64,000 bases of DNA from Alphaproteobacteria bacterium (lineage in GTDB: Bacteria > Pseudomonadota > Alphaproteobacteria > UBA9219 > RFNS01). The stretch lies in the NCBI GenBank assembly GCA_037200005.1, contig JBBCGY010000001.1, positions 42,416 to 106,415 of the forward strand, in the 5' to 3' direction. Position numbers and translations under genes: made by a program. Below the pieces are notes generated by a model. It saw only the letters and a list, made by a program, of their open reading frames with translations. It made no database searches and was not told the DNA's origin. Within the stretch, counting starts at the first letter, position 1; every line of letters starts with the position of its first letter. Below are positions 1-35,663 of the stretch, one piece after another.

Positions 1-59
1 TCACTTAACCGCGCACCGGCCTCCGATGCGCGGTTTTTCTATGCCGACTGATCGCCAAT

Positions 60-545
60 TTACGTTTTGAATGGATTATCGAAAACGAGACCGACCTTGC
101 CTGAGAGCGGCCAAATACCATGCTCAGAACCGAATCCTAATTCGAGGGAGAGTTCGCGCAAGGATTTAAAGATTAGAGAAAAGATGCTCCATATCTTACA
201 TGCGATAGAGACGACGTATTCTTTGACCCGCTCGATGAATTCGATAAGCGCATCTCTGGTTCGTCGTGCATAAGTTCTAAGAGAGGCCAACACGCTAGAG
301 GCCAAAGATTTTACATGCAGGAGAAATCGCTCGGCATGCCCTTTGGTCAATTCAACTCCTCTCGCTATTCTATCTGGCATGATGTCGCAATATTCTAGAA
401 AAGCAGAAAAAAGTTCACCTTCTTCCTTTGGAAATTCTCTAGTCGCATCGGTATCTTTGGCGATCCTTATGTCCTGTTTTAGACTCACGAGGATGGCATT
501 GACGGCTGCATCGTCAGCTTTTTCAGATAGTTCTAGAATAAGCAT
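60..545 (-). CDS. hypothetical protein (lower-GC, accessory)
   Basis: 161-aa ORF with no recognisable motifs; AT-richer than the core genome. Confidence 0.3.
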   Translation of the reverse strand: MLILELSEKADDAAVNAILVSLKQDIRIAKDTDATREFPKEEGELFSAFLEYCDIMPDRIARGVELTKGHAERFLLHVKSLASSVLASLRTYARRTRDALIEFIERVKEYVVSIACKIWSIFSLIFKSLRELSLELGFGSEHGIWPLSGKVGLVFDNPFKT

Positions 546-745
546 GGGCTTGATCCTCCCCTATAGATTGCAAAGACTAAATTAAACACATCCATTCCTT
601 AGAATCCAAGCTTCTTCATACCGAACAACTGAAACATACACCGTTATGTGTCTGACCGATAAACCGTCAGCTACTGCTGCGCAGCATTTAAACGCACCCA
701 TCTCTTCAAAACAATTTCCCCCTCACCTCATAGAAAGGAAAGCAT

Positions 746-1006
746 ATGAAAACATCCATGTCCGAAATCATTGATCTTACCCTCACGCAAGCTATTGAGC
801 GTTACATGGAGATGGAGCCGGAGGCGGTTCACGATGCCATTGTCGCCGAATGGCCGGAACAACTGGCCGTCATTCTGGTGGAGTTCTTTTTCAAAACCAC
901 ATGCGGCAATTGCGACGGCTTGCCGGATTTTATCCAAATCCCAAGAGAGCAGAGCGACATTTATTACATCGTCCCGCTATGCGGCTGCGAATGGGGCGGC
1001 GAATAG
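746..1006 (+). CDS. small hypothetical protein with CxxC...CxC cysteines
   Basis: 86-aa ORF preceded by RBS-like 'aggaaagca'; contains CGNC and CGC motifs. Confidence 0.3.
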   Translation: MKTSMSEIIDLTLTQAIERYMEMEPEAVHDAIVAEWPEQLAVILVEFFFKTTCGNCDGLPDFIQIPREQSDIYYIVPLCGCEWGGE

Positions 1007-1091
1007 CGTCTTAACCATACTGAGGGCGTGCGCACGACTTCGCCAAAGATTTTAAGCCCCGATTATTCCAACCATAGAAAGGAACCCTATT

Positions 1092-1772
1092 ATGAAAGCC
1101 GGAAACACCCATACCACGCGCGAAAGCTGGCTGCGGTCGGCGACGAATGAATTACGCCCGTATTTCAGCAAGCTCGGCTACGAATTGCCGGAGAAGATTC
1201 GTTTTGCCATCGCGTTCACATCAACCGGCAAGCGCGGACACATGGCCGGAGAATGCTGGCATCCGGCGTCATCGGCAGACGGGCATTATGAAATCATCAT
1301 CCGCGCGGATATTGCCGATCCCGCAGAAGTCCTTGGCATTCTTGTGCACGAACTTGTGCATACGTTGTTGCCGCCCGAAGTGAAACACGGGAAAGAATTC
1401 AGAGCCATTGCGCTGCGCATCGGCCTTGAAGGCAAAATGCGCGAAACAACGCCCACGCCGATCTTGGCGGAGCGTTTAAACGCTATCGCCATCAATCTCG
1501 GCGCATTGCCTCACGCCAAACTTAATTTTTCCGAGAACGCCGATGCTCCCAAAAAACAAAAAACCCGCTGGCTGAAAGCTGAATGCGGCGCGGCTTGCGG
1601 TTATAGCGTTCAAATCACCGCTAAATGGGCGCGCGCCGGGCTTCCCATTTGTCCAATCGATACCGATCATGGCGCATTGATTTGCAATTTGCCGGATGAT
1701 GGCAAGGACGAAGAAATAACCATGGACAACAAATCGGACATGCAAACAAGCAAAGCAATTTTGCGTTCCTAA
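1092..1772 (+). CDS. SprT-like zinc metallopeptidase domain protein
   Basis: HELVH...HGKEF...IGL matches the SprT pattern HExxH...HGxEW...VG; C-terminal Cys cluster (CGAACGY...CPID...LIC) resembles the SprT zinc ribbon; RBS 'aaggaacc' upstream. Confidence 0.55.
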   Translation: MKAGNTHTTRESWLRSATNELRPYFSKLGYELPEKIRFAIAFTSTGKRGHMAGECWHPASSADGHYEIIIRADIADPAEVLGILVHELVHTLLPPEVKHGKEFRAIALRIGLEGKMRETTPTPILAERLNAIAINLGALPHAKLNFSENADAPKKQKTRWLKAECGAACGYSVQITAKWARAGLPICPIDTDHGALICNLPDDGKDEEITMDNKSDMQTSKAILRS

Positions 1773-1824
1773 ATAACCGACATTGAGAAATTGATTTCGT
1801 CGCAGGCTCCGCAAGGTGTGGGTC

Positions 1825-1871
1825 GTGTGACGTTGTCACACGCCACCCCCTCTGTGTGACGCGTCACACAG
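1825..1871. promoter_or_regulatory. two adjacent palindromic operator-like sites (GTGTGAC-n3-GTCACAC and CTGTGTGAC-gc-GTCACACAG)
   Basis: 7-3-7 inverted repeat at 1825-1841 and perfect 9-2-9 palindrome at 1852-1871, immediately upstream of / overlapping the start of ORF 1856-2200. Confidence 0.4.
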
Positions 1872-2200
1872 AGATAGCAGGGGCTTCGCCCCATGCACCC
1901 CCATATTCATTTCAGCGAGGATATTCACATGACTATTTCGCAAAAATCACGGTTATCAACCAAGTCCTTTCTCAGCATCCGCGAGAGAAAGACGGAATGC
2001 AGTATCATTCCGTCAATATTGAGTCTCCAGTGTTGCCGACGCCGATCAATGCCGCGCTATTCCAGGACAAGGAGGATGACAGCAAGTTCAACCTCATATG
2101 GAACAGGCCGGAGCAGCAGGGACTCAAGGCCGAAGCCACCCTAAGCGTCGCGGGTCAGCCCCAATCCCGCCGCTTCTCCGGCCCGCGCGCAACGCCGTAG
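1856..2200 (+). CDS. hypothetical protein (start uncertain; alternative ATG at 1893)
   Basis: 114-aa ORF downstream of the palindromic sites; no motifs. Confidence 0.25.
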   Translation: MTRHTEIAGASPHAPPYSFQRGYSHDYFAKITVINQVLSQHPREKDGMQYHSVNIESPVLPTPINAALFQDKEDDSKFNLIWNRPEQQGLKAEATLSVAGQPQSRRFSGPRATP

Positions 2201-2331
2201 GTAGTAACGGAGAGGACGACATCCCCGCAGGACGCTCGTCCTGCGGGGATTAATCGGAAAATATCGAACGAATGCCCTATGGCGCAATCCAGAGGCCGCC
2301 ATTATAATGCGCGGAAACTAAGGGATAGCAT

Positions 2332-3892
2332 ATGGCGCAAGCGAAAAAGGCAAAGAAACAGGGCGGCAATGGGGCTAATTTGGGGTTTGAAGCCCAGATG
2401 TTCCAAGCCGCCGACAAAATGCGCGGCAGCATGGATGCCAGCGAATATAAGCATGTCGCCCTGGGACTGATTTTCTTGAAATATATCTCCGACGCTTTTG
2501 AAGCCAGACATGCGACTGTCAAAGCGGACGGCGAGGACCCGGAAGACCGCGATTTTTATATCGCGGAAAATGTCTTCTGGGTTCCCAAAGAGGCCCGATG
2601 GAACCATCTACAAGCGAATGCCAAGCAACCGACCATCGGTAAATTGATTGATAATGCCATGCTGGCGATTGAGTCGGCGAATGCCTCTTTGAAGGGGGTT
2701 TTGCCAAAGGATTATGCCCGCCCAGCCCCTCAACAAACAAATGCTTGGCGAGCTGATCGACCTTATCAGCGGCATCGGGATGCATGAGGGCGCAGGCAAG
2801 AGCAAAGATATTCTTGGGCGCGTTTACGAATATTTCCTCGGTGGCTTTGCCGGAGCCGAAGGCAAGCGCGGCGGTGAATTTTATACGCCGCGTTCCGTAG
2901 TCATGCTGCTGGTTGAAATGCTGGAGCCTTATAAAGGCCGCATCTATGACCCTTGCTGCGGTTCGGGCGGCATGTTCGTTCAATCGGAGAAATTCGTGCT
3001 GGCGCATGGCGGGCGCATCGGCGACATCGCCATCTATGGCCAGGAAATGAATAACACCACATGGCGCTTGGCCAAAATGAATATGGCGGTGCGCGGCATT
3101 GACACGGATATTCGCTGGAACAATGAAGGCAGCTTCCATAAAGATGAATTCAAAGACTTGAAGGCCGATTATATCCTCGCCAATCCACCGTTCAACGTAT
3201 CGGATTGGGGAGCGGATCGCCTGCGCGAAGATGTGCGGTGGAAATACGGCTTGCCGCCTGCTGGCAATGCCAACTACGGCTGGCTACAGCATATCATCCA
3301 CCATTTAGCGCCGAATGGCGTTGCCGGCGTTGTGCTGGCCAATGGCAGCATGTCTTCCAATCAGTCCGGTGAAGGCGAAATCCGCAAGGCTATGATTGAA
3401 AAGGATTTGGTCGATTGCATGGTGGCCTTGCCAGGGCAGCTATTCTATTCAACCCAGATTCCGGCCTGCCTGTGGTTCTTGGCGCGGAACAAAAAAACAT
3501 CGCATCCGCGCAATCGCAGCGGCGAAGTCTTGTTCATTGATGCCCGGAAAATGGGTGTCATGATTGACCGCACCCGCCGTGAGTTAACGGAAGATGACGT
3601 TAAGAAGATCGGCGCTCTCTATCATGCCTGGCGCGGTGAAAAAGACGCCGGGAAATATGCCGACATTCCTGGTCTTTGCAAGGCGGCAAAGTTGGATGAA
3701 GTCTCCGGTCATGGCTTTGTCCTCACCCCTGGCCGCTATGTCGGCAGCGAAGCGGTGGAAGATGACGATGAACCGTTTGAGGTGAAATTTCCCCGACTGG
3801 TTGTTGAGTTGGAAAACCAGTTTGAAGAAAGCGATAAACTCACTGCCCAAATTCGGCGGAATCTGACTTTGTTGGGAGGGTCGCAAAAATGA
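2332..3892 (+). pseudogene. hsdM: type I restriction-modification DNA methyltransferase subunit M, frameshifted (+1 in a C-tract near 2725-2735)
   Basis: N-terminal '[31 protein letters not shown]' in frame 1 continues in frame 2 as '[17 protein letters not shown]...[11 protein letters not shown]...[10 protein letters not shown]...LANPPFN' (SAM-MTase motifs I and IV). Removing one C from 'gcccct' restores ...[19 protein letters not shown]. Confidence 0.8.
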
Positions 3893-4380
3893 CGCTCAAC
3901 CACAAATACATCAAACAGATATTGATTTCCTTGCGGGACAATCCAGCTCCCAGCATGGACAGTTATGATCTGGCAAAAATTTGTGGCGTTGATATGAACC
4001 ATATTGATGAATTGGCGTTTGGTAAGTTTGTGACCCAACTGCGCCTGCTAAAGGATATGGCATGCATAGACTGTCCCGTGGACAATCTCGGCTTTAGCCA
4101 GAACATCAATCGCCACTGGATAATTTGTCGCACCACCTATCGGCTCTCCAGCCAGGGGCACAGTTTTCTGGACACAGAAAACAAAAATACCCTGTTCAAT
4201 AAGGGAAAGGCGTTCTTCTTTTCAGCCTTTACGGAAGCTGGAAAGCGTTTTCTGATTCAGGCAATAACGGCAATTTTTATTGTTGTGCTGGCTACCGTTG
4301 CCGCAAACGCTGGTCTTTTCAAAATTTCGAGTTCGCATGGCCTAGCTAATCTCAAAAATCCAAAAGAGCGAGGGCTATGA
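3889..4380 (+). CDS. hypothetical protein with C-terminal transmembrane helix, inserted between hsdM and hsdS
   Basis: 163 aa; ATGA overlap with the hsdM stop; AT-rich codon usage; C-terminal hydrophobic segment [23 protein letters not shown]; its stop overlaps the hsdS start. Confidence 0.45.
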
Positions 4381-5696
4381 TGTCTCTTTCGGAATGGCAA
4401 ATATTATCATTTAAAGAAGCTGGTGTTCAGTTGATTGATTGCGATCACAAAACACCCCCGGCATCTTCTTATGGGTATCCATATGTTACGATCCCTCAAA
4501 TCAAAAATGGGCGCATAGATGTGTCTGAAGCAAGGCGGATTACCGCAGAACATTTCAAAGAGTGGACAAGGAAGGCCAATCCAAAGCCCTTTGACGTTGT
4601 CTTATCTCGTAGATGCAACCCAGGAGAAACTGCCCATGTCCCTGCGGGGCTAGAGTTCGCTCTTGGACAAAATCTCGTTTTGTTGCGTGCAAATGGTGAA
4701 AAGGTATTTCCGCGATATTTACGATGGCTTACGCGGGGAGTGTTATGGTGGGAACAGATATCAAAGTTTATTAATGTGGGCGCCGTTTTCGATAGTTTGA
4801 GATGTGCGGACGTTCCAAATTTTCAATTTCCAATACCAGCACTGCATGAACAAAAAGCAATTGCTTCAATATTGACCGCACTGGACGATAAGATCGAACT
4901 GAACCGCCGGATGAATGCGAACCTGGAGGCGATGGCGCGGGCGGTGTTCAAAAGTTGGTTTGTCGATTTCGACCCCGTCCGCGCCAAAATGGCAGGCCGC
5001 CAACCCTTCGGTATGAGCGCGGCTACCGCTGCCTTGTTCCCCTCGCGCCTCGCCCCCTCCGAACTCGGCGATATTCCGGAGGGGTGGTCGGTCGATCAAA
5101 TCGGGAACGCGGTCACCGCCGTTGGCGGCAGCACCCCCAGCACCGAAAATCTAGAATATTGGACTGATGGGCAGTATGCCTGGGTAACGCCAAAAGACCT
5201 CTCTGCACTGAAATCGCCTGTTTTGTTCACAACGGAACGCAGGATAACAGATGCAGGAATCCGTGTTATCAGTTCCGGACTTCTGCCGTCGGGTACTGTT
5301 TTGATGTCTTCCCGTGCGCCAATCGGCTATATCGCAATCGCCGAAACGTCCGTTGCCATCAATCAAGGCTTCATAGCCATCGTTTGTGACAAAGAGCTTC
5401 CCAATTTATACGTCTGGCAATGGCTGCACGCCAATCTTGACATGATCAAAAGCCATGCAAACGGCTCAACCTTTCAGGAAATCAGCAAAGGCAGTTTCCG
5501 GCCTCTCCCCTGCATCATTCCATCAGCAAAGGTTCTCGAAAAATTTCAGGCAATCGTTTTGCCTATCTGGCAAAAACTCGTTGCGAATGAAAAAGAGTGT
5601 CTGGGGCTAGAAAAAACGCGCGACTACCTTCTTCCCAAACTAATCTCCGGCGACATCCGCATCCGCGACGCCGAGAAATTTATGGAGGCTGCATAA
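4377..5696 (+). CDS. hsdS: type I restriction-modification specificity subunit S (two target-recognition domains)
   Basis: Central conserved 'LHEQKAIASILTALDDKIELNRRMNANLEAMARAVFKSWFVDFDPV' and C-terminal 'LPKLISGDIRI' repeats typical of HsdS; intact 439-aa ORF. Confidence 0.9.
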   Translation: MMSLSEWQILSFKEAGVQLIDCDHKTPPASSYGYPYVTIPQIKNGRIDVSEARRITAEHFKEWTRKANPKPFDVVLSRRCNPGETAHVPAGLEFALGQNLVLLRANGEKVFPRYLRWLTRGVLWWEQISKFINVGAVFDSLRCADVPNFQFPIPALHEQKAIASILTALDDKIELNRRMNANLEAMARAVFKSWFVDFDPVRAKMAGRQPFGMSAATAALFPSRLAPSELGDIPEGWSVDQIGNAVTAVGGSTPSTENLEYWTDGQYAWVTPKDLSALKSPVLFTTERRITDAGIRVISSGLLPSGTVLMSSRAPIGYIAIAETSVAINQGFIAIVCDKELPNLYVWQWLHANLDMIKSHANGSTFQEISKGSFRPLPCIIPSAKVLEKFQAIVLPIWQKLVANEKECLGLEKTRDYLLPKLISGDIRIRDAEKFMEAA

Positions 5697-7150
5697 TGAA
5701 TCGCTGGGTAAATTCGTTCCAGAACCATCCTTTCCAAAAGCCATGGAAAGATATTGTGGAGCTTTCAGAAAAGATTGCTCTTCAAGATGAGACTGTCGCA
5801 ACTGACGTCCAAGAGCTTGCGCGTCTAAAAAAGGTTATAACCTATGTTGGCCAGTTAATAGGTGCAGCTGATCCGGAATTGATTCCATTAAGCATATGGA
5901 GTTCTTTTCAGGACCAGGCCACGCAGTGTGCAGATCAAATCAATCAGTACAACAGCAATAAGAACATTACTCACCTCAGCAACGCTAATAGCAATCTAGA
6001 TAATTTATTGACATATGTTCGCCCTTATGTGGTTTCTGCAGAGGGGGCGGCTCAGGCGGCAATGTCTGCGTTCATAGTGTATTCCGACACCATCAATACA
6101 CAGACCGATCTGATACAATCAAAAACCCAAGCCTCTGTTAACGGTACGCAGGCGAACAAAGAAAAGTCTGATGAAATATACAAAGAAATAGAGCAGTCAA
6201 AGCACAACATTCAACAATTGGAACAAAAATTTTTGATCGGCGATAGCAATGAGAAGAGCCTCCAGGAAAGAATGCAGATTCTTCTTGGGGAAGCCCAGGA
6301 GTGGAATAAAATAATTGGTGAGTTTCACAAACGGCTGACAAGCGGCAATGAACAAGAAAGCGCAATTTCGCTACAAATCGAAGAAGCAAAAAATAAAGCT
6401 ACTAAGGATAAGGAGGCTATAGAAAGTGCCCTTCAATTATCTGAAAATTTAATCAAAGACCTCAAAGAGTTTTATGAGCGAGTTTTTGGCAAAGAAGGCA
6501 GTGACGGAAACGTCATGGTCGGTCTAAAGCAAGAATTGGATAACCGCATTAAAGAGCTTGATAATTTTAAAATTAATCAAGGAACAGCCTACAATACCTT
6601 ATTTCAAAAAATTGAATCTCTACTGCCCGGAGCAACAAGCACTGGTCTTGCCAGTGCGTATAGAGAATTAAGAGACTCTTTTGCTGCGCCCATCAATATC
6701 TATACGCTAGTGTTTTGCTTCACCCTAGCAGTGATGTTTTTTGTTGGCTTGTGGGGTGTTGACTTCGGTGATGATGTGGGATTGAACAAGATGCTCGGCA
6801 GTCTCTATCACAAACTCCCACTTTTACTGCCCATCCTGTGGCTGGCAATTTTTGCTTCCAGACGAAGAAGCGAAAGTCAAAGGTTGCAACAAGAATATGC
6901 CCATAAAGAGGCGCTCGCAAAATCATTTCAAAGCTTCAAAAAACAAATTGATGCATTGCAGGAGAAGGACGAGGTCCTTACCAAGAAACTCCTGGATGCT
7001 ATGATCGGTGCCGTGTCCCATAATGCATCACAAACACTGGATGGAAAACATGGAGATAAAATTCCAACGCAAGAACTTCTAGAGGGAGTTATCAAGAAAT
7101 TTCCTGCGCAAAGCTTTTTTGAAAAATTAGTCGATAAAATCCTTAAATAG
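5696..7150 (+). CDS. coiled-coil protein with two C-terminal-proximal transmembrane helices, unknown function (candidate defence/abortive-infection effector)
   Basis: 484 aa from an ATG overlapping the hsdS stop (TAATG). N-terminal half is long Q/E/K-rich heptad-like stretches; TM helices 'INIYTLVFCFTLAVMFFVGLWGV' and 'LPLLLPILWLAIFAS'; AT-rich relative to flanks. Confidence 0.6.
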   Translation: MNRWVNSFQNHPFQKPWKDIVELSEKIALQDETVATDVQELARLKKVITYVGQLIGAADPELIPLSIWSSFQDQATQCADQINQYNSNKNITHLSNANSNLDNLLTYVRPYVVSAEGAAQAAMSAFIVYSDTINTQTDLIQSKTQASVNGTQANKEKSDEIYKEIEQSKHNIQQLEQKFLIGDSNEKSLQERMQILLGEAQEWNKIIGEFHKRLTSGNEQESAISLQIEEAKNKATKDKEAIESALQLSENLIKDLKEFYERVFGKEGSDGNVMVGLKQELDNRIKELDNFKINQGTAYNTLFQKIESLLPGATSTGLASAYRELRDSFAAPINIYTLVFCFTLAVMFFVGLWGVDFGDDVGLNKMLGSLYHKLPLLLPILWLAIFASRRRSESQRLQQEYAHKEALAKSFQSFKKQIDALQEKDEVLTKKLLDAMIGAVSHNASQTLDGKHGDKIPTQELLEGVIKKFPAQSFFEKLVDKILK

Positions 7151-7233
7151 GGAACAATGTGAATGGTCTGTTAGGGGCAAAAAACTCGTCACATCCAACT
7201 TATCAAGTACGTTCCTCGGAAAGAGCTACTCAC

Positions 7234-8319
7234 ATGACCTTTGACCGCAACACACCCTACAACGATCTTCCGCTTTTGCCACCGGCGCAGATCGACCTGG
7301 AAACAAAGCCTATTCTCAAAAAGGCGATCACGGCGAATATCGCGCTTGCCAAGCTGTTCGACGCGGGAAAGTTGATTCCCAATCAGGCGCTTCTGGTTCA
7401 GGCGATTGGGTTGCAGGAAGCCAAGCTGTCCAGTGAAATCGAGAATATCGTCACGACCAATGACGATCTTTACCGCGCTTTCGCGGATGAGGGCGTGCAT
7501 TCCAGCCCCGCAGCCAAAGAGGTTCTGTTTTACAAGGACGCGCTCTGGAAAGGCTATAACGCGATCAAACTGGAAAAGCGCCCGCTCTCCACGCGCCTTT
7601 TTGAAGATACGTTCCGCATTATCAAGCAATCCTCTGACGGCATCCGGCGTTTGCCGGGCACGAAATTATCGAACCCGGCAGGCGAGATTATCTACACGCC
7701 GCCCGAAGGCGAAAATCTTTTGCGTGACAAGCTCTCCAATCTCGAAAAATTTCTTTACGCCGAAGACGGGCTTGATCCTTTGATCAAAATGGCCGTCATG
7801 CACTATCAATTCGAGGCTATTCATCCCTTCACCGACGGCAATGGGCGCACGGGGCGCATTCTCAATCTTTTATATTTGATCGAGTGCGGGTTGCTGGAGA
7901 TTCCGGTTTTGTATCTATCCCGCTACATCATCGAACACAAAACGGATTATTATCTGGGACTGCGCGGCGTAACCGAGGGGCAAAATTGGGAATCGTGGAT
8001 TCTCTATATTCTCGATGCGATTGAAGTGACGGCGCAGATGACCAGAGATCGGATTCTTCGCATTCATTCTTTAATGGACAAGACGGCGGAGGCGGTCAAA
8101 GCCCAGGCTCCCAAAATCTATTCCAAAGACCTTATTGAGGTGATTTTCCGCCAACCCTACTGTAAAATTCGCTTTTTGGAGGAGGCAGGGATTGCCCAAA
8201 GGCAGACCGCCTCCACTTATCTCTCCAAATTAGAGGCTTTGGGTATTTTGGAGTCCGTAAAGGCTGGACGCGAGAAATATTATATTAATCCGGCATTCTT
8301 TAACCTTTTGGCAGAATGA
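7234..8319 (+). CDS. Fic family protein (AMPylase-type Fic, class II with N-terminal inhibitory motif, C-terminal wHTH)
   Basis: Canonical Fic motif HPFTDGNGRTGR; N-terminal 'MTFDRNTPYNDLPLLPP' typical of the Fic N-terminal domain; 'SSEIEN' fits the (S/T)xxxE(G/N) inhibitory motif; start taken at an internal Met of ORF 7159-8319. Confidence 0.85.
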   Translation: MTFDRNTPYNDLPLLPPAQIDLETKPILKKAITANIALAKLFDAGKLIPNQALLVQAIGLQEAKLSSEIENIVTTNDDLYRAFADEGVHSSPAAKEVLFYKDALWKGYNAIKLEKRPLSTRLFEDTFRIIKQSSDGIRRLPGTKLSNPAGEIIYTPPEGENLLRDKLSNLEKFLYAEDGLDPLIKMAVMHYQFEAIHPFTDGNGRTGRILNLLYLIECGLLEIPVLYLSRYIIEHKTDYYLGLRGVTEGQNWESWILYILDAIEVTAQMTRDRILRIHSLMDKTAEAVKAQAPKIYSKDLIEVIFRQPYCKIRFLEEAGIAQRQTASTYLSKLEALGILESVKAGREKYYINPAFFNLLAE

Positions 8320-8386
8320 CATGGTTATTTTCTGCATGTTTATGAAGTGCTTAGGTGATATGTTGTTTTGATCGACACATCGTTCC

Positions 8387-8421
8387 AACATGTCGAAAAA
8401 ATCAGAAAATTTCGACATGTT
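8387..8421. promoter_or_regulatory. inverted repeat AACATGTCGAAA-n11-TTTCGACATGTT upstream of hsdR
   Basis: perfect 12-nt arms at 8387-8398 and 8410-8421, ~85 nt upstream of the hsdR ATG. Confidence 0.3.
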
Positions 8422-8503
8422 GAGGCTTGTGCCCTTGTTGGTTCTAAAATGCGCTTAACCGAGGCCAAACAGGCAACGGCATCGCAGTCCAAAGAGAAAA
8501 TCG

Positions 8504-11500
8504 ATGGTCGCTGACATTCAATACACCCAGCCGGAACCGAATTATGACGGATTCCGCGAAGCGCATGTTGAAGAAGCAACTTTCGATTGGCTCTCTGGGC
8601 TTGGCTGGACACTCGCGCATGGGCCGGATTTGGCACCGGAAGGCAAAGCCCCGGAGCGGGCCAGTTATGGCGACGTGCTGTTGTTGGGGCGGTTGAGGAC
8701 AGCCTTGGCCGCGATCAACCCGCAACTCCCCGCCGATGCGATTGACGACGTGGTGCGTAAGATTATCGCAGTCGAAATGCCGTCTTTGGTCGAAGAAAAC
8801 CGGCGCTTGCATAAACTGATGGTCGATGGCGTGGCTGTGCAATACATGCAGGCCGACGGCACGATCAAAAACGACATCGCGTGGCTGATCGACTGGGAAA
8901 ACAAAAAGAACGATTGGCTGGCCGTCAATCAATTCACGGTCATCGAAGAACGCAACAATCGCCGCCCCGACGTGGTGATGTTTATCAACGGTTTGCCCCT
9001 TGCCGTTATTGAATTGAAGAACGCGGGAGACGAAAACGCGACAATCGAAGGCGCGTTCCGCCAGACGCAAGCTTACAAGCAATTGATCCCTTCTCTGTTT
9101 CGCACGAACGGCATACTGATTATTTCCGACGGACTGAAAGCCCGCATCGGCAGCCTGACCGCAGATTATGAGCGTTTCATGCCATGGCGCACGGTGGATG
9201 GGGCCGGTGTCGCGGCCAAAGGAACGCCCGAATTACACACAATGATTCACGGCGTTTTTGAGCAAGGGCGTTTTCTGGAGTTATTGCGCCGGTTCACCGT
9301 GTTTCAAAGCAACGGCAAAGATATTTTCAAAATCGTAGCAGGATATCACCAGTTCCACGCCGTAAAGCTCGCCGTTGCCAGCACCATCGACGCAACGGCC
9401 AGTGAAGGAAATCGCAAAGTCGGCGTCATCTGGCATACGCAAGGATCGGGCAAAAGCCTGTTGATGGCATTTTATGCGGGCAGCGTGATTGCCAATCCTG
9501 CGATGGCCAATCCGACTCTGGTTGTGCTGACCGACCGGAATGATCTGGACGACCAGCTTTTTTAACACTTTCAGCCTATCTCGTGATCTTATCCGCCAGA
9601 CGCCCGCGCAAGCGGGAGATCGCGATGAATTGCGGAAGCTTCTGGCGGTATCATCTGGCGGCGTTATCTTTACGACCATTCAAAAATTTCTGCCCGCTGA
9701 TAGTGAAAAAACTTTCCCGCTGTTGACTGACCGCAAGAATGTCATCGTCATCGCCGATGAAGCGCACCGCAGCCAATATGGCTTCAAGGCCAAGTTGGAT
9801 AAAAAGTCGGGCGAATTAGCTTATGGTTTTGCGAAACACCTGCGCGATGCGCTGCCGAATGCGTCCTTCATTGGCTTTACAGGAACGCCTATTGAGAAAG
9901 CAGATGTCAATACGCCCGCCGTATTCGGCGATTATATTGATGTCTATGATATTCAACGCGCGGTCGAAGACGGCGCGACGGTGCCAATCTATTACGAAAG
10001 CCGCCTAGCCAAACTCCAGCTTGACGAAGAGGAAGTCAAAAATCTTGATGCTGAGGTCGAAGAACTGACCGAAGACGAAGAATCCAGCGAGCGCGAGCGT
10101 AAGAAAAGCAAATGGTCGCGCGTTGAAGCCCTGTGGGAGCCGAAACACGCTTGGCTCAAGTAGCCGCCGATATTGTTCAGCATTTTGAGAACCGTATCAG
10201 CGCCTTAGACGGCAAAGGCATGACCGTATGCATGAGTCGCCGTATTTGCGTGGCGCTCTATAACGAGATTATTAAATTACGGCCCGCATGGCATTCAGAC
10301 GATGACGCGCAAGGCGCTATCAAGATTGTGATGACGGGCAATATCGCCAACGATCCGCCTGAATGGTTGAAACATACGGGCAGCAAGGCGCGCCGTGATT
10401 TCCTGGCAAAGCGGGCGCGCGACGCTAAAGACCCGCTAAAACTTGTTATCGTTCGTGATATGTGGCTTACGGGCTTTGATGCGCCCTGCATGCACACGAT
10501 GTATGTCGATAAGCCGATGCATGGTCATGGCTTGATGCAGGCCATTGCCCGTGTAAATCGCGTATTCCGCGACAAGCCAGGCGGCTTGATCGTTGATTAT
10601 ATCGGGATTGCCCATAATCTGAAACAAGCTCTCTCTATTTATTCCCCCGGCGACCGCGAAGAAGTCGGCATTGACGAGCAGCAAGCCGTCGCAGAGATGA
10701 TGCGCCGCTATGAAATCGTCCGGGATATGTTTTATGGATTCGATTATATGCGCGCGCTGCACGGCACACCGGCTGAACGCTTAGTGCTGATGGCCGAGGC
10801 TCTGGAGTGGATTCTCGATTTGCAGCAACGTGAAGCTGCAAAAGAACAGACCGAACAAGCCAGGAAAGAGGTGCGCCGCAAATTCTCAGACGCCGTTGTT
10901 GGCTTATCGCGCGCCTATGCGCTGGCCGCAACCTCGCCAGAAGCGGGGAAAATTCGTGATGAAGTCGGTTTCTTCCAGGCTATTCGTGCAGCCCTGGCAA
11001 AAAATGAGCCGGGCAAAGGTAGCACACAGGCGGAAATCGATGTGGCCGTCCAACAAATGGTCAGTCGTGCCGTGGTGTCAACGGAGATTGTCGATATTCT
11101 GGCGGCGGCAGGCATTAGAACCCCGGATATATCCATCCTCTCAGATGAATTTCTGGCAGAAATTCAAGGCATGAAGAAGCGTAACCTTGCATTGGAAGCC
11201 TTACAGAAACTCATCAATGGAGAAATAAAATCCCGCATCAAATCGAACGTGGTGCAATCTAAGAAATTCAGCGAACGACTGGAAGCCGCCGTCCGGCGCT
11301 ATCATAACAACGCTATAACTGCCGCGCAGCTTTTGGAGGAGCTGATTGCCATCGCAAAGGATATTAAAGCTGACCGCGAACGAGGAGAAGAACAAGGACT
11401 TAGCGAAGAGGAAATCGCTTTTTATGATGCTCTGGCTGAAAATGAAAGCGCATTGCAGTTGTTGGGCGATGAGAAATTACGAGTGATTGCTACTGAACTG

Positions 11501-11680
11501 GTTGTCTCCGTTCGCAATAATGTGTCTGTTGACTGGATGCACCGCGATAGCGCCCGCGCCAAGTTGCGCATCGAAGTCAAAAAGATTCTCAAGAAATATG
11601 GCTATCCGCCAGATTTACAGGATGCAGCGGTGCAACTGGTGTTGCAGCAGGCCGAAGTTTTGGCCCCACTCTGGGCATAA
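8504..11680 (+). pseudogene. hsdR: type I restriction enzyme R subunit (HsdR), disrupted by two frameshifts (~9555 and ~10140)
   Basis: Three consecutive ORFs (frames 2/3/2) cover an HsdR: N-terminal domain, DEAD-box helicase motifs 'HTQGSGKS', '[12 protein letters not shown]', 'FTGTP', C-terminal domain. First break is in a T6 run (ctttttt; dropping one T reads DDQLFNTF). Second is a 1-nt loss at 'ctgtggga' (restoring g gives [17 protein letters not shown]). Confidence 0.85.
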
Positions 11681-11772
11681 CAATCGCTGACGGCGATCTT
11701 TGGAATTCTATGTAAGAGGCTGCAACAGGTAAGGCCAGATTATGACCGAGAGGAACGAAGATTCTTAAACAA

Positions 11773-12903
11773 TCAAAGCGCCAGCCGGGGCCGGATTAGC
11801 GACAAAGGCCGGGCAGTGGAAAGCTGGAGGCCAACAGCTTCGTTTGGAACATTGGAAAAATCGGTAATAAGCGGCAGCATGGCGTTAGGGCCAAGGGCGC
11901 GTGGTGAGGCACCTAGTTCTTTAAGAGCGGAAACAATTTCCGGTTCATTTAGCGCATGAATGCGCATAAGGGGTTGCGTAGTGTCAGGAATCCATTTCCT
12001 GCGCGAGACTTCATCGCGGCCCGTCGAGATAAGTGCCGCGACCACGTCCTTGAGTTTGTCGCCTTTCGGCAGATTGCCGTTGCTGGTGATTTGAGCGCGG
12101 ACAATCGGCTCGCCCAGGAAGGTCGAAATGGCTTCCGTAAAACTGGCGGCGATTTTCTGATTGCCGTCCTCACTTTGCCAATTCGCCAGGAACACATTTG
12201 GCAAGCTGGAGTCTTTGCCGGGTTTCGCGGCGAAGTCCGCGAGCTGGATTGCAACTCGTGAGCGGCCCGTTTCAATGGGCGCATCGCCGATAAATTCCAG
12301 AACGGCGCTATCGTCCGGCGCTCCCATCGTCGCACCGAGTTTCTTGAAGATGCCGGTCATGGCCGCATTGCCGCCCGCATATTCGCCGACGCGGCCGCGC
12401 GAGACGAGGCCATAGGGCGAATAGCCTTGTTCGCGGCTGACGGATCGCCGGATTTTCTCGTAGATAAAATGCGAGCCAAGTCCAATGCCATTCGGGTATT
12501 CCGCGCTTTTTGTGCGATTACGGAATTCCTGGGATAGTTCCGGCGACACATAGGTATCTTCGCCATAGATAGCAGGATAATGGCGGAAATCCCGGCCATT
12601 GCGTTCCGTGAGAACGGTCGGAAACTCGATTGAGCCACCGGCGAGTTTGGGGCTGCAATTTTCCCACTCCACGATGGCGAAATAAGCCTGAATTTTATTT
12701 TTCTTGATGGCCTCGATAACTTTGCCGAATTTGGCGTTATCAGCGGACGCTCCATGCGTCACGGCTTCACTTTCGACGATTCTATAAAGAATCTCATCAA
12801 GCGCCATATGATGAACGACGTCCGTACCGTTCATGCGCACGATGCTGGCTTTGGCGTTTCCCGGCAGCAGACCGGGCATATTATCGAGCGCAACGGAAGA
12901 CAT
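11773..12903 (-). CDS. hypothetical protein, family A (paralog of 24000-25298)
   Basis: 376 aa; shares blocks with the 432-aa protein at 24000 (KLAGGSIEFPTV/KLAGAAIELPTV, HYPAIYGEDT, YPNGIGLGS/YPNGLGLGT, KIAASFTEAISTF, PIVR.Q.TSNGNLP.GD, MRIHAL.EPEIV.ALK.LGA.PR.LGP); immediately downstream of the HTH regulator gene (2-nt gap). Confidence 0.6.
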   Translation of the reverse strand: MSSVALDNMPGLLPGNAKASIVRMNGTDVVHHMALDEILYRIVESEAVTHGASADNAKFGKVIEAIKKNKIQAYFAIVEWENCSPKLAGGSIEFPTVLTERNGRDFRHYPAIYGEDTYVSPELSQEFRNRTKSAEYPNGIGLGSHFIYEKIRRSVSREQGYSPYGLVSRGRVGEYAGGNAAMTGIFKKLGATMGAPDDSAVLEFIGDAPIETGRSRVAIQLADFAAKPGKDSSLPNVFLANWQSEDGNQKIAASFTEAISTFLGEPIVRAQITSNGNLPKGDKLKDVVAALISTGRDEVSRRKWIPDTTQPLMRIHALNEPEIVSALKELGASPRALGPNAMLPLITDFSNVPNEAVGLQLSTARPLSLIRPRLAL

Positions 12904-12905
12904 GA

Positions 12906-13556
12906 TTATATTTTCCCCTTGTCGTCGGGGATCGAAGCATTTTCCCAGAATGATTCAAATTGCTCGACATATCTTTCGGCCAAGGGCTTGGAGTGTATCG
13001 AAACGACTTCGACATTATGATCGCTGCGATGCACCGCCTGGGCGATATAGTCATTATAGACGTAATAGGGAATGAGGATTTTCGTCGTCTTATCCAGCCA
13101 GCGATATTCGCAATAGCTGGCGGAGAAATTATAGTCGCCATCCAGGATAAGAACGCGGGCGTCAAGATTCGGAAGCTTGCTCATTCTTTCCATATGCTCG
13201 GTCGCATAATCTTGCGCATAGGAAAGGGTCTTGCCGTCGCTGGAATTAAACTGGCGAATGCGTCCACCGTCTTTCAGCGTTTCGTATATATGATCGAGGA
13301 ATTGTCGGTATCCGGCTTTGCCCGAAAAAACCCTGACTTGGTTTCTCCGCATCCGAACGCCCTCGTCATCCAGGAATTCGACGCCGTGCCGGTCGAAAGC
13401 ATTGGTTATGCTGGCGATGGTCTTCTCATGCGGTTGTACCGTATCGGCCTCGATTTTGCTCACGGTCACGCGGGTAAGCCCGGCCTCCCTAGCCAAGTCT
13501 TCCGCTTTCCATTCCAGTAAGCTGCGCGCTGCGCGAATTTGACGCCCGGTAATCAT
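12906..13556 (-). CDS. XRE-family HTH transcriptional regulator with C-terminal domain of unknown function
   Basis: N-terminal 'RQIRAARSLLEWKAEDLAREAGLTRVTVSKIE' is a typical Cro/C1 HTH; ~150-aa C-terminal domain unassigned. Confidence 0.7.
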   Translation of the reverse strand: MITGRQIRAARSLLEWKAEDLAREAGLTRVTVSKIEADTVQPHEKTIASITNAFDRHGVEFLDDEGVRMRRNQVRVFSGKAGYRQFLDHIYETLKDGGRIRQFNSSDGKTLSYAQDYATEHMERMSKLPNLDARVLILDGDYNFSASYCEYRWLDKTTKILIPYYVYNDYIAQAVHRSDHNVEVVSIHSKPLAERYVEQFESFWENASIPDDKGKI

Positions 13557-25843: not shown

Positions 25844-27031
25844 ATGCGCCATACGGGACATATTCGCCAGCGTTCAGAAGGGAGTTTCGAGCTTCGCTAT
25901 AGCATCGGCACCGATCCGGTCACGGGAAAATGGAAAGTCAAAACCGTCACCGTTAAGGGAACGCGCAAAGCTGCCGAGAAAGAATTGCGCCGCATACTCG
26001 ATGCAATCGATGACAATGATTATGTCGAACCCAATAAAATCACTACCCGTGATTTTTTGACACAATGGCTTGAAACAATGCGTTCCCAGATAACCCCCAA
26101 ATCCTATGAAAGCTACGCTGAAATAGTCGATAACTTCCTTATCCCAACTCTTGGCGGTCATATTCTGGCGAAACTTGCTCCGGCTGTTATCCAAAAAGCC
26201 TACAATGGATGGGAAGCTGGTGGCCGCAGGGATAAAAAGGCGGGCGGGCTGGCGGCGCGTTCCCGTCTCTATATCCACCGCATCCTTAAATCGGCACTCA
26301 AACATGCCGTGCAAATACAGCTAATCGCCCGCAATCCCGCCGACGCGGTTAAAGCGCCGCGCGTCAAGAAAGCCGCCATAACTACATTGACCGTGGATCA
26401 ATCGGCGGCGCTGCTCGATGCCCTGTCCGGCAAGCCGCTTTATTGGCCTGTGTTGCTTGCCCTAACAACGGGCATGCGCCGGGGTGAAATTCTGGCGCTT
26501 CGCTGGAAGAATATCGACTTTGAAAAGAAAACTGTTCGCGTCGTCGAAAGTCTAGAGCAAACCAACACAGGCATTCGCTTCAAGGCTCCGAAAACGGAAC
26601 GGAGTCGTGCCGTCATGTTGCCGGATTATGCCGTTGAAGAACTGCGGAGACTGAAAAAAGAACAGGAGAAAAAATTGTCGGAATCAGGAATCGGCCAAAC
26701 CACTGAAACGCTGGTTTGCGGTCGCTATGACGGCGAACCGCTATGGCCTACCTCACTTACGCATGAATTCGTGAAGGCCATGAAGAAACTGCCGAAACTG
26801 CCGCGCGCCAGATTCCATGATTTGCGCCATTCCCATGCCACGCAACTCCTGACAGCAGGAATCCATCCCAAAATCGCGCAAGAACGGCTGGGACATACCA
26901 CGATTACGACAACCCTAGACCTCTATTCCCATGCGACGGACACCATGCAAGACGAGGCTGCATCAAAGCTCGACAATGCCTTCCGTTCTGCTATAAAGGC
27001 CCGTTCCGACCAAGCGCCACGACTAGGATAA
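25844..27031 (+). CDS. int: tyrosine-type site-specific recombinase / phage integrase
   Basis: C-terminal catalytic signature 'RFHDLRHSHAT...LGHTTITTTLDLYSH' (R..HxxR..Y); N-terminal SAM-like domain; start taken at the internal ATG with 'ggaggc' RBS. Confidence 0.9.
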   Translation: MRHTGHIRQRSEGSFELRYSIGTDPVTGKWKVKTVTVKGTRKAAEKELRRILDAIDDNDYVEPNKITTRDFLTQWLETMRSQITPKSYESYAEIVDNFLIPTLGGHILAKLAPAVIQKAYNGWEAGGRRDKKAGGLAARSRLYIHRILKSALKHAVQIQLIARNPADAVKAPRVKKAAITTLTVDQSAALLDALSGKPLYWPVLLALTTGMRRGEILALRWKNIDFEKKTVRVVESLEQTNTGIRFKAPKTERSRAVMLPDYAVEELRRLKKEQEKKLSESGIGQTTETLVCGRYDGEPLWPTSLTHEFVKAMKKLPKLPRARFHDLRHSHATQLLTAGIHPKIAQERLGHTTITTTLDLYSHATDTMQDEAASKLDNAFRSAIKARSDQAPRLG

Positions 27032-27111
27032 ATTGGTTCTGTAGCAATTTCTGTAGCAAAATCGATTTTGCTTCCGGTAGGAATACTCTAAGTGTATGTT
27101 TTTGCTGATGT

Positions 27112-27187
27112 GACCTTGTAGCTCAGCCGGTAGAGCATCTGACTTTTAATCAGGGGGTCGCGGGTTCGAACCCCGCCGAGGTCACCA
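27112..27187 (+). tRNA. tRNA-Lys (anticodon UUU)
   Basis: 76-nt cloverleaf folded by hand: acceptor GACCTTG/CGAGGTC, D-stem GCTC/GAGC, anticodon loop CTTTTAA, T-arm GCGGG-TTCGAAC-CCCGC, encoded CCA. Confidence 0.9.
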
Positions 27188-27220
27188 GCTATAAACGGAC
27201 TTTTAAGTCCGTTTATAGCT
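27187..27220 (+). terminator. perfect 14-bp hairpin immediately after the tRNA
   Basis: agctataaacggac-ttttaa-gtccgtttatagct. Confidence 0.4.
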
Positions 27221-27228
27221 GGTTATGA

Positions 27229-27250
27229 AGTTGGGTTCGAACCCGCGACA
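27229..27250. repeat. tRNA 3'-end-like fragment (GGGTTCGAACCCGCGAC), possible att-site remnant
   Basis: 12/12 match to the tRNA T-arm 'GGGTTCGAACCC', located 45 nt downstream of the tRNA. Confidence 0.3.
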
Positions 27251-27268
27251 AAATAACAGTCGGGTTCA

Positions 27269-27291
27269 CTTCCTGCCCAAGAGGCAGGAAG
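27269..27291 (-). terminator. hairpin downstream of the EAL regulator gene (possible terminator)
   Basis: cttcctgcc-caaga-ggcaggaag, ~70 nt beyond the stop of 27361-28557. Confidence 0.3.
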
Positions 27292-27360
27292 CCACGCGGC
27301 AAAAAATCCAATAAAACACTTCGCGTACAACCCCGCCACAGCGCCGCCATACACGAGGCT

Positions 27361-28557
27361 CTAACCCCGCCCATAACCCGCGCAGAATTCGACGAGCGAT
27401 TCCAAATTCATCGGCCTGGCGATAAAATATCCCTGAGCGAGATCGCATCCCATGCCCTTCACGGTCTCCCAGTCTTTCTCAGTTTCGATTCCTTCCGCGA
27501 CGCATTGGATCTCCAGCTGATGCGCCATCTCAATGCTGGATTTTACGATGATGCCCAATGCGTTGTTGTCGGCGCAGTCTCTGATGAAGGACTGGTCGAT
27601 TTTCAGTTCTCTGAAATCGATGCGCATCATCTGCTGGATATTGGAAAATCCCGTGCCGTAATCGTCGATGGAAAGCGGAAAGCCGTGCATCCTCAGCCTG
27701 GCCAGATTTTCCAGGGAATGCGCGACATTCAGCATGGCCGCGGACTCGGTGATCTCGAACATGACGAGATTCGGATTGATGCCCGCATCGCGCACGACCC
27801 GCAGGATTTTATCCGCGAGATCGGGATTGTCCAGGAGACTGGGGGATAGATTGACGGAGACGGAAAGCGGATGGCCGTTGTCGTGCAGAAGCCGGCAAGC
27901 GGCGATGGATTTTTCCATAATGAGGTAGGTCAGCTTCTCGATATTATCGCTTTTCTCGAGCGGCTCGATGAAGGCGTAGGGGGAGATGACGCCATGTTCG
28001 GGGTGAATCCACCGGGCGAGCGCCTCCGCGCCATGCACGATGCCGGTCTTAAACCCGACCTTGGGCTGATAGAAAGGCTCGAACTGCTTCTGCTCTATGC
28101 CGTTCAGAATATCCTCGATGGTAAAATCAGGCGTCGCCGCCTGCCTGGACGTCCTGGACTGGAGGGCGCGATGCCGTGAAATAAAGGCTTCGATATGCAA
28201 CGGCGAAAGAGGCTTCTGTATCGCTCCCAGCAGCCTGACATTATAGGCGGCGGCCATTTTCTTCACCGTCCCGATGAGGGCGCCGTCGTGCGAGCTTATG
28301 ATGACGACGGAAACGTCCGGATGATTCTTCCCCAAATGGCGGAGAAATTCCATGCCGTCCATTCCGGGCATATTGAGATCGCAAAGAACGATATCGATCG
28401 AATTTCCGTCCTGGCGCCGGAGTATCTCCAGCGCCATTTTGCCGTCGGATGCTTCCAATACCGGCTTGGAGCTATGCGGGCGCAGCATATTCGCCGTCGT
28501 CAGCCGCAAGAAATCGTCATCGTCCAGCACCAGGAAATTCAACTCATCTTTGCTCAT
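27361..28557 (-). CDS. response regulator with REC and EAL (c-di-GMP phosphodiesterase) domains, RocR/PvrR-like
   Basis: N-terminal REC (LVLDDDDF...DIVLCDLNMPGMDG); EAL motifs 'EALARW', 'DDYGTG', 'EGIET', 'QGYFIARP'. Confidence 0.9.
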   Translation of the reverse strand: MSKDELNFLVLDDDDFLRLTTANMLRPHSSKPVLEASDGKMALEILRRQDGNSIDIVLCDLNMPGMDGMEFLRHLGKNHPDVSVVIISSHDGALIGTVKKMAAAYNVRLLGAIQKPLSPLHIEAFISRHRALQSRTSRQAATPDFTIEDILNGIEQKQFEPFYQPKVGFKTGIVHGAEALARWIHPEHGVISPYAFIEPLEKSDNIEKLTYLIMEKSIAACRLLHDNGHPLSVSVNLSPSLLDNPDLADKILRVVRDAGINPNLVMFEITESAAMLNVAHSLENLARLRMHGFPLSIDDYGTGFSNIQQMMRIDFRELKIDQSFIRDCADNNALGIIVKSSIEMAHQLEIQCVAEGIETEKDWETVKGMGCDLAQGYFIARPMNLESLVEFCAGYGRG

Positions 28558-29338
28558 GGGCCGCCTTCCTATGCATCACGGTCGGACAGTTGGTATAGTA
28601 ATATTCGAGCTTCTCGGGAGAAAAATTCTTGGCGACGAAGCCCTTGGCGCCGAGATTCTTAGCGGTCAGGACATTATCCTTCACGCTGTCGCTGCTGATA
28701 ATAATAACATAAGCGCTGGGGTCGAAGCTAAGAATCTCGGATAACGCTTCCATGCCCGAGCCTCCAGGCAGATGAATATCGAGAAAAAGTATGTCGGGGA
28801 GCATACTTAAGTATGTTTCCACGAGGCCGTCGATGCCGCCCACTTCGACGACATGTATTTTGGGATGGAAAACCCTGGCGATCAGCGACCTGACGAACAT
28901 ATCGTCCTCGACCACCATGACGATGTCGCGCGCCCTTTCCATTCTCGCCGTGAGCAAAGGAGGCGTGTCCGATTTTTCCTTCATGGCGTCCTGAAGCCGA
29001 AGCTGGAGCCTGGGCAGCCCTCCCATGGCGGCGGGCATCGCCTCGACGGAACAGCTATATTGCGGCATTGTCTTTTCAATATCCGAGCACAGGCCGTCAG
29101 GATCCGTTTGCGGCCCCATATTGACGAGCGCCAGAATCTCCCGGCCGGCGCATACGAAAATAACCCCATCGATGCCGCGAAAGTACTCGCGCAACTTCCA
29201 TGCTATATGGGGCGCGTTATGCGTGGTCTTCCCTGTCAGGGAGACGGCGACGAATTGCCACGCGTTTATATCTTTTTTGACTTTGGCGGCGAATTGTAAG
29301 AGCTTCGCATGATCATAGGAAGGCAGAAACTCCATCAT
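28544..29338 (-). CDS. response regulator: C-terminal REC domain with N-terminal domain of unknown function
   Basis: 'VMVVEDDMFVRSLIARVF...ILFLDIHLPGGSGMEALSEI...AKGFVAK' is a CheY-like receiver; 14-nt overlap with the downstream EAL gene. Confidence 0.75.
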   Translation of the reverse strand: MMEFLPSYDHAKLLQFAAKVKKDINAWQFVAVSLTGKTTHNAPHIAWKLREYFRGIDGVIFVCAGREILALVNMGPQTDPDGLCSDIEKTMPQYSCSVEAMPAAMGGLPRLQLRLQDAMKEKSDTPPLLTARMERARDIVMVVEDDMFVRSLIARVFHPKIHVVEVGGIDGLVETYLSMLPDILFLDIHLPGGSGMEALSEILSFDPSAYVIIISSDSVKDNVLTAKNLGAKGFVAKNFSPEKLEYYYTNCPTVMHRKAAHEQR

Positions 29339-29346
29339 CTTCTCCC

Positions 29347-31860: not shown

Positions 31861-31961
31861 TGACGGCCCGCGGAAAGTCGCGGCCGGGCGCATCGCCGTC
31901 TTGAATTCTTCACAATTCCATGCGTCAATGATGGCATCATTTTTTTCAGACGGGGTGCGTC

Positions 31962-32405
31962 ATGATGCGTCATTTATTCTTGGGACTTGGCCTTATGCTG
32001 CTCTCGGACTGCGCGGCGGCCGATACGATGGCTGAGGGGATGGCCAATGGGATGGAAAGCCCATCCTGGCAGGGAGCGATAGCGGCGCATGCGGATGTGT
32101 CCGATTTCGCCGTCGCCATAGACGAAAATTCATGGCGGGAATTATGGCAGCGGATCGGACAGCCCGCCCCTTCTCCCTTGCCGGAAGGCCAAATGGCGGT
32201 CGCGGTTTTCCTGGGACAGAAGCGAAGCGGGGGCTATAAAGCCGAAATCGTCGGGGTGCAGGAGCATGAGAGCAACCTGACCGTTTCTTACCGCGAGCAT
32301 CGCCCCCGCCTCGGCGCCATGGTGACGCAGGTGATCACGTCGCCCTATGCGGTGACGCTTCTGCCGCTCACGACACTGCCGGTCAAATTCGAAAAGGCCG
32401 ATTAG
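31962..32405 (+). CDS. exported hypothetical protein (possible PrcB_C-like domain)
   Basis: signal peptide MMRHLFLGLGLMLLSDCAAA; 'GQKRSGGYKAEIVGV' resembles the PrcB C-terminal TGGY motif. Confidence 0.4.
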   Translation: MMRHLFLGLGLMLLSDCAAADTMAEGMANGMESPSWQGAIAAHADVSDFAVAIDENSWRELWQRIGQPAPSPLPEGQMAVAVFLGQKRSGGYKAEIVGVQEHESNLTVSYREHRPRLGAMVTQVITSPYAVTLLPLTTLPVKFEKAD

Positions 32406-34959: not shown

Positions 34960-35007
34960 GTGACGAGGGTTATAGAACAGATTGCGCGGCGGGGGAACTT
35001 CCGAAAA

Positions 35008-35658
35008 TTACATGGTTCCGAACATGCGGTCCCCGGCATCGCCGATGCCGGGAACGATATAGGCGTTCTCGTTGAGCCGGTCGTCGAGGGCGGCGCAATA
35101 GACCCTGATCGCGGGATGCTTGGCGAAAAAGGCGCGCAGGCCTTCCGGCGCGGCGATCAAGGCCATGACGCGGATTTTTTCCGGCGCGATGCCCTGCTTG
35201 AGGACGAGATCGCAGGCATGAATCAGCGAGTTGCCGGTCGCCAGCATCGGGTCGACGACGAAAAACATCTGCCCCCTGTCCTTGGGCAGACGCACCAGAT
35301 ATTCGACGGGCATTTTGGTGTCGTGGTCGCGATACACGCCGATATGCCCCACCTGAGCGGTCGGCATCAGGTCGAGCAGGCTTTCCGCCATGACGAGGCC
35401 GGCGCGCAGCACCGGCACGATGCAGGGTGGCGGCCCGGCCAGCGCCGGCGCCATCATCTCGGCGAGCGGCGTTTTGATGGGACGCTTGGTGGTCTCGAGG
35501 CCGCGCGTCACTTCATAGCCGACCAAAAGCGAGATTTCGCGCAATAAGGTGCGGAAGCCGTAAGCCTCGCGCGACACTTCGCGCATCTGCGTCAGTTTAT
35601 GCTGGATAAGGGGATGATCGACGATGAAGAAATTGGGGTACTCGCTGACCTTTTGCAT
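35008..35658 (-). CDS. upp: uracil phosphoribosyltransferase
   Basis: 'VVDPMLATGNS' PRPP-binding motif and C-terminal 'YIVPGIGDAGDRMFGT'; start taken at MQKVSEYPN. Confidence 0.9.
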   Translation of the reverse strand: MQKVSEYPNFFIVDHPLIQHKLTQMREVSREAYGFRTLLREISLLVGYEVTRGLETTKRPIKTPLAEMMAPALAGPPPCIVPVLRAGLVMAESLLDLMPTAQVGHIGVYRDHDTKMPVEYLVRLPKDRGQMFFVVDPMLATGNSLIHACDLVLKQGIAPEKIRVMALIAAPEGLRAFFAKHPAIRVYCAALDDRLNENAYIVPGIGDAGDRMFGTM

Positions 35659-35663
35659 CGCTT

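Follow-up and report, generated by a model that had tools for sequence, protein, structure and literature searches.

The window analysed here, a stretch of 64,000 nucleotides from an uncultured alphaproteobacterium, carries on its + strand, at 2332-11680, a type I restriction-modification (RM) operon of the order hsdM-orf163-hsdS-orf484-SoFic-hsdR. As deposited, the operon contains three one-base frameshifts, one in hsdM and two in hsdR. We consider it likely that the two hsdR breaks are read errors or minority alleles and that the hsdM break is both real and recent. Overall, there is nothing unusual about this type I RM operon, which holds embedded cargo and, in hsdM, a frameshift that is probably real. 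The two interrupted genes are as follows.

hsdM, 2332..3892, + strand: type I methyltransferase subunit, in two window pieces, 2332-2787 (Pfam HsdM_N) and 2714/2741-3892 (Pfam N6_Mtase).

hsdR, 8504..11680, + strand: restriction subunit, in three window pieces, 8504-9565, 9540-10163, and 10133-11680, with Pfam domains that run across the pieces.

An initial annotation of this DNA had reported the three frame breaks, and they were indeed found, at 2726-2729, 9558-9563, and 10132/10133. In hsdM, an extra C gives a C4 run at 2726-2729, the frame then reads DYARPAPQQ, and a stop follows at 2787; the deletion of one C from the run restores a nearly invariant HsdM stretch. In hsdR, the first break is a T6 run at 9558-9563 that leads to DDQLF followed by a stop, and the second is a base missing at 10132/10133. 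The second break had been mended on paper with an added G, but the missing base turned out to be a T (CTT GTG GGA), as seen both in a contig of the Logan assembly described below and in a 90%-identical relative; the restored protein is the same. All three lesions fall inside RM genes, while ~55 other genes of the window are intact. The claim that the other long genes are undamaged thus holds, since the layout of open reading frames (ORFs), Pfam scans on suspicious ORF pairs, and the deposited gene calls reveal no further split gene in the 64 kb. Overlapping ORF pairs, namely pilins and genes of type II and type IV secretion systems (T2SS/T4SS), were considered as extra frameshifts and rejected, as Pfam scans show them to be separate genes.

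By exact-protein look-up and alignment, the window is identical to part of contig JBBCBH010010965.1 of assembly GCA_037975565.1. The JBBCBH assembly was made with hifiasm-meta r058 by co-assembly of the PacBio HiFi metagenome runs SRR28211698-701, obtained from four beech deadwood samples, and no polishing step is described for it (PMC11613949). The contig, of 1,828,711 bp, is one of the two contigs of the metagenome-assembled genome (MAG) 40_UBA9219, which comprises 2.36 Mb with a GC content of 59.3% and a coverage of 8.6x, was detected in one sample only, and was recovered 4 times before dereplication (PMC11613949). The MAG is assigned to an uncultured member of the Alphaproteobacteria (order UBA9219, family RFNS01, genus JAGOHT01). 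A search for near-identical DNA gave no match in E. coli genomes, and plasmids yielded short distant matches only.

The comparison assembly consisted of two Logan contigs, both from run SRR28211700, and the cross-check based on them covers 24.3 kb of the 64-kb window. Logan is a k-mer assembly whose unitigs are built from 31-mers, those occurring once per run being dropped (PMC12424806). Tables S5 and S8 of PMC11613949 pair two samples with SRR28211700 and no sample with SRR28211701. The same paper reports the MAG from a single sample, 'sample 7', to which it assigns the label SRR28211699; the Logan assembly of SRR28211700 nevertheless contains the MAG's sequence. These tables are thus no reliable guide to which run belongs to which sample; either way, SRR28211700 contributed one of the co-assembly's four read sets, and the conclusions are unchanged.

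The first Logan contig, SRR28211700_31730 (13,726 bp, hereafter L003), aligns to positions 1-13375 of the window with 0 mismatches and two 1-bp gaps. Both gaps lie in hsdR: T6 in the window is T5 in L003, and a single T is TT, the second site reading CCCTGTGGG in the window and CCCTTGTGGG in L003. In L003, hsdR is a single ORF of 1058 amino acids (aa). The C4 run of hsdM is identical in both assemblies. The second Logan contig (L006, 10,922 bp) corresponds to window positions 27141-38062 and shows zero differences. Since Logan discards k-mers seen once, T5, TT, and C4 each occur at least 2 times in the reads. Protein look-ups gave the same picture: the broken 207-aa hsdR piece was found in the GenBank assembly only, the intact 1058-aa HsdR in the Logan contig only, and a 151-aa product specific to the C4 of hsdM in the two assemblies only. 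The run lengths that had been proposed for intact genes (C3, T5, and an extra base) are therefore matched by Logan at the two hsdR sites, yet not in hsdM.

The intact hsdR allele is real, because errors would not mend two frames by chance. HsdR scores 611 bits against TIGR00348 and, according to Pfam, has an N-terminal nuclease, an SWI2/SNF2 motor, and a C-terminal domain, all encoded by one ORF in L003 and by three in the window. A genome scan with the intact protein found 584 relatives. In the 80 loci kept for comparison, HsdR is encoded by single ORFs that align over nearly the full length, the best with 87% and 82% identity, and an alignment with 76 relatives shows that 291 of 292 invariant columns are retained. 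The restored junction peptides, LDDQLF.TFS and VEALVG, are the family consensus, and the relative whose protein is 90% identical has CTT at the second site. The comparison with orthologous loci, which the initial annotation had recommended, thus shows the hsdR breaks to be unlike the family, and the hsdM frame to be truly broken with respect to relatives.

The two assemblies differ by 2 homopolymer-length indels and 0 substitutions over 24.3 kb. Residual errors of HiFi assemblies are known to concentrate in homopolymers, and the pattern fits HiFi read error in an unpolished low-coverage contig, not diverged strains. It resembles the artefacts of low-coverage unpolished HiFi or Oxford Nanopore assemblies, in which one-base homopolymer changes split genes without substitutions; the window differs from them in that the hsdM change, one of three, withstands the cross-check and probably has a biological origin. 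We conclude that the hsdR frameshifts are probably homopolymer read errors that stayed uncorrected and were carried into the contig; a real minority haplotype is an unlikely source for them. The possibility of homopolymer sequencing error, raised in the initial annotation, is hence supported for hsdR by T5 and TT in Logan, and opposed for hsdM by C4 in both assemblies.

Several points weigh against this reading. The three lesions of the 64-kb window cluster within 4.7 kb of RM genes, and both inter-assembly differences lie in hsdR, which makes up 3.2 kb of the 24.3 kb compared. The chance that both would hit hsdR is ~1.7% if they are independent and ~13% if they form one cluster from one poor read. 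Their location lends some plausibility to real heterogeneity at a locus under relaxed selection after the hsdM lesion. Moreover, given the labels in Table S5, it is uncertain whether the Logan run represents the very reads of the contig or a sister sample. The two assemblies share the sequencing chemistry and probably the reads, so that their agreement on C4 is not fully independent, and the allele calls rest on assemblies rather than on a read pile-up.

The same clustering is an argument for true decay, in which three real frameshifts would sit on one haplotype resolved by hifiasm-meta, hsdR having drifted after the loss of hsdM; the Logan contig would then represent a co-existing haplotype with hsdR still intact. 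In favor of this, all lesions fall in RM genes among ~55 intact neighbors, both inter-assembly differences are in hsdR, hifiasm-meta is built to separate haplotypes, and the loss of HsdM lifts selection on hsdR, given that restriction requires the whole complex. Real divergence, however, would consist mostly of substitutions, and the two versions show none. In addition, a second frameshift, 570 bp beyond the first, would give selection nothing new to act on; Logan did not assemble the broken hsdR allele; and HsdR otherwise keeps all but one of its invariant residues. We regard true decay as unlikely. The view of the three indels as real decay is not supported, since a single lesion is reproducible and both proteins, HsdM with all 186 and HsdR with 291 of 292, retain their invariant residues; neither several reproducible lesions nor a loss of conserved residues, as in a decaying pseudogene cluster, was found.

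A related scenario invokes standing variation: the population would have silenced the RM system of its island via hsdM and would now be gaining hsdR-null alleles, while the cargo (SoFic, orf484, and orf163) is kept. The RM operon would then persist chiefly as a scaffold that carries and expresses the embedded cargo. We find this scenario rather improbable. The earlier suggestion that selection now acts on the cargo is not inferable from one recent frameshift in a pristine 9-kb operon.

As to hsdM, the two pieces together hold the Pfam domains PF12161 and PF02384, with the frame broken in the window. The repaired protein aligns over its full length with proteins of 517-519 aa, at up to 90% identity, and its residues 19-515 align at ~75% identity in 58 loci. 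Of the residues invariant in the family, 186 of 186 are retained, among them those of the catalytic motifs DPCCGSGG and NPPF. The junction DYARPALNK is near-invariant in 47 loci, all with C3 or a shorter run at that site, and the closest intact relative reads GCC CTT, a C3 run. No intact near-identical HsdM was found, there being nothing above 90% identity among 5.8 billion proteins. Because C4 is present in both assemblies, the lesion is probably real and very recent.

Should the extra C of hsdM also be a shared read or consensus error, all three breaks would be artefacts, and the RM system would be fully intact and active. This seems quite improbable to us, although the change is again one of homopolymer length, the same HiFi reads stand behind both assemblies, the coverage is as low as 8.6x, the repaired HsdM has no other defect, and the site is covered by these two assemblies only. 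C4 k-mers necessarily occur at least 2 times in the reads and both assemblers chose C4; judging from the HiFi error profile, several HiFi reads are unlikely to share an identical +1 error at a run of 3 bases.

Homopolymer-mediated phase variation was another possibility put forward at the outset, with the short runs acting as contingency tracts that toggle the RM system within the population. Phase-variable type I systems do exist in other bacteria; those of Haemophilus and Neisseria have simple-sequence repeats in hsdM or hsdS, and contingency loci in general consist of homopolymers of about 7 or more bases or of multi-copy repeats. The operon of the window shares with them frame-switching homopolymer indels inside an hsd gene, and the run length differs at 2 of the 3 sites between two assemblies of the same population. 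However, phase-variable systems keep long homopolymers or multi-copy repeats as tracts, whereas the runs here span 3-6 bases at most and are not conserved. The tracts are only C3/C4, T5/T6, and T1/T2, far below known contingency tracts; relatives use varied synonymous codons at these sites, with no conserved tract; and T6-type runs are common, the window containing 46 runs of at least 6 bases. No hypermutable simple-sequence tract was found in either gene, the tracts of the deposited sequence being C4, T6, and a single T. As for alleles, the difference between assemblies in hsdR is inseparable from read error, and hsdM shows one allele only. Phase variation is therefore very unlikely.

It could further be imagined that HsdM is functional in split form, the 2332-2787 domain and a catalytic domain starting at ATG 2714 or 2741 assembling into an active methylase. 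The break does lie between the HsdM_N and N6_Mtase Pfam domains, and in-frame ATGs occur just upstream of the stop of the first ORF. ATG 2714, on the other hand, is without good ribosome-binding site spacing, the junction is highly conserved, and no split form was seen among the relatives examined: 106 aligned full-length relatives and the 47 loci read at the site have single ORFs of ~517-519 aa. This idea has almost nothing to recommend it in terms of probability. Programmed frameshifting or a split HsdM was rejected, every relative examined having one ORF over the near-invariant junction.

If, as we prefer to think, the hsdR breaks are errors or minority alleles and the hsdM break is real, the following sequence of events may be proposed. 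The two T-run changes of hsdR (T5 to T6 and TT to T) would be uncorrected errors in the hifiasm-meta contig or, less likely, a minority haplotype, and the added C in hsdM would be a real and very recent inactivating mutation. Restriction requires two HsdR, two HsdM, and one HsdS (R2M2S1), and methylation requires HsdM and HsdS (PMC11411939). Because both activities need HsdM, we infer that a real hsdM frameshift would silence the whole system, giving a restriction- and modification-negative (r- m-) phenotype without self-restriction. The genes hsdS, hsdR, and the embedded ones would remain intact as there has been too little time for decay.

A type I RM operon that is pristine apart from a frameshift in hsdM is common and contributes little. 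The case rather calls for caution: when an unpolished HiFi metagenome assembly of low coverage shows frameshifts, these need a read check before decay or phase variation is claimed. Here, a public k-mer assembly sufficed to remove two of the three apparent frameshifts.

The other genes of the operon, all on the same strand, are intact.

orf163, 3889..4380, + strand: small protein whose C-terminal part includes a hydrophobic segment; the gene overlaps both neighbours, with its start at the stop of hsdM and with its stop at the start of hsdS.

hsdS, 4377..5696, + strand: intact specificity subunit with two target-recognition domains (2 stretches matching Pfam Methylase_S).

orf484, 5696..7150, + strand: member of a widespread, uncharacterised all-helical family of ~485 aa, directly after hsdS, with long coiled coils and a C-terminal hydrophobic hairpin.

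SoFic, 7234..8319, + strand: intact SoFic-type Fic/DOC protein with the Pfam domains Fic_N, Fic, and SoFic-like_C and the active-site motif HPFTDGNGRTGR.

Type I RM operons frequently have defence genes embedded in them, as the literature documents (PMC11411939; the 2024 'guilt-by-embedding' survey by Payne et al.). In this family, embedded genes are well known and common. Examples are the type I RM system of V. cholerae VPI-2 with TgvAB and EcoprrI with PrrC. The operon of the window is like them in having hsdM, hsdS, and hsdR on one strand with unrelated genes between the subunit genes. It differs in its cargo, which consists of SoFic and two uncharacterised proteins predicted to be of membrane type (orf163 and orf484), and in its frameshifted hsdM. 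The gap from hsdM to hsdR in 58 relatives of the RM system ranges from 1.3 kb to >9 kb. In the closest intact relative (ENA ERZ27314162 k119_64252, designated L089, and L090), HsdM and HsdR are each 90% identical to those of the window. In this relative, the slot between hsdM and hsdS holds RhuM and orf173, and the slot between hsdS and hsdR holds SLFN/AlbA_2, orf201, and a 766-aa AAA_13 ATPase. The relative's RM system is located on an element that also encodes a serine recombinase and a primase. A promoter and terminator scan of the operon of the window gave no more matches than shuffled sequence.

HsdS matches PADLOC Specificity_I over its full length with E = 1.9e-119. The SoFic protein matches PADLOC PDLC03963 with E = 2.4e-115 over residues 13-360 of 361. 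It has the same Fic_N/Fic/SoFic-like_C architecture as the SoFic single-gene anti-phage defence, and the HxFx[D/E]GNGRxxR motif is intact; both a full-length family match and an intact Fic motif, the marks of a SoFic defence protein, are thus present. It differs from the NCBIfam 'protein adenylyltransferase Fic' (NF046030), for which it scores 484 bits, under the equivalog cut-off of 550. Judging from its sequence, the protein is a predicted member of the defence-associated AMPylase family.

The small protein orf163 is a near-orphan. It belongs to no Pfam, PADLOC, or NCBIfam family, has one relative among 5.8 billion proteins (121 aa, 70% identity), and is absent from 80 related RM loci. The orf484 family is much larger, with >1200 relatives of ~485 aa, none with a Pfam domain, and a conserved C-terminal motif, RRSE..RLQQEYAHKEALAKS. 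Its neighbourhood was inspected in 80 metagenome loci, the upstream neighbour being readable in 53. Homologues stand directly after hsdS, within a type I RM operon, in 13 of these 53, hsdS being the commonest upstream neighbour, and no other conserved partner appeared among the 80 loci. The AlphaFold model of orf484 is all-helical and of moderate confidence, with a predicted local distance difference test (pLDDT) score of 73.8; a search of the PDB gave no significant fold match (best E = 0.2), and no PADLOC or plasmid match was found. By its embedded position, orf484 is a candidate defence gene, and its recurrence after hsdS has a modest follow-up value.

Directly downstream of hsdR and convergent with it (11773-13556, - strand) lies a gene for a 376-aa protein without known family. 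It is adjoined by a 216-aa helix-turn-helix (HTH) protein that weakly matches models of control proteins and of the RmrA N-terminus. The two genes may have a regulatory role or constitute an additional defence pair.

The RM operon is located on a genomic island of ~31.7 kb integrated at tRNA-Lys. A perfect direct repeat of 42 bp marks its two ends; the left copy is located ~4.5 kb before the first position of the window.

Right copy of the repeat, 27109..27150, + strand: 5' half of tRNA-Lys-UUU, found by repeat search.

The tRNA-Lys(UUU) gene occupies 27112-27187, and a tyrosine integrase gene (Pfam) stands beside it at ~25844-27031. The GC content is ~50% within the island and ~61% beyond it. 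The repeat duplicates the 5' half of the tRNA, not the usual 3' end. The island also carries DUF736, HTH regulators, an RHS protein of 1793 aa with downstream genes, and a Sel1 protein.

The part of the window at ~45000-64000, mostly on the - strand, is DNA of core GC content with type IVb pilus genes (PilS-/bundlin-like pilins, T2SSF, and T2SSE). The same part contains components of a Dot/Icm- or IncI-like type IV secretion system, namely TraI, DotD, and a second T2SSE-type ATPase.

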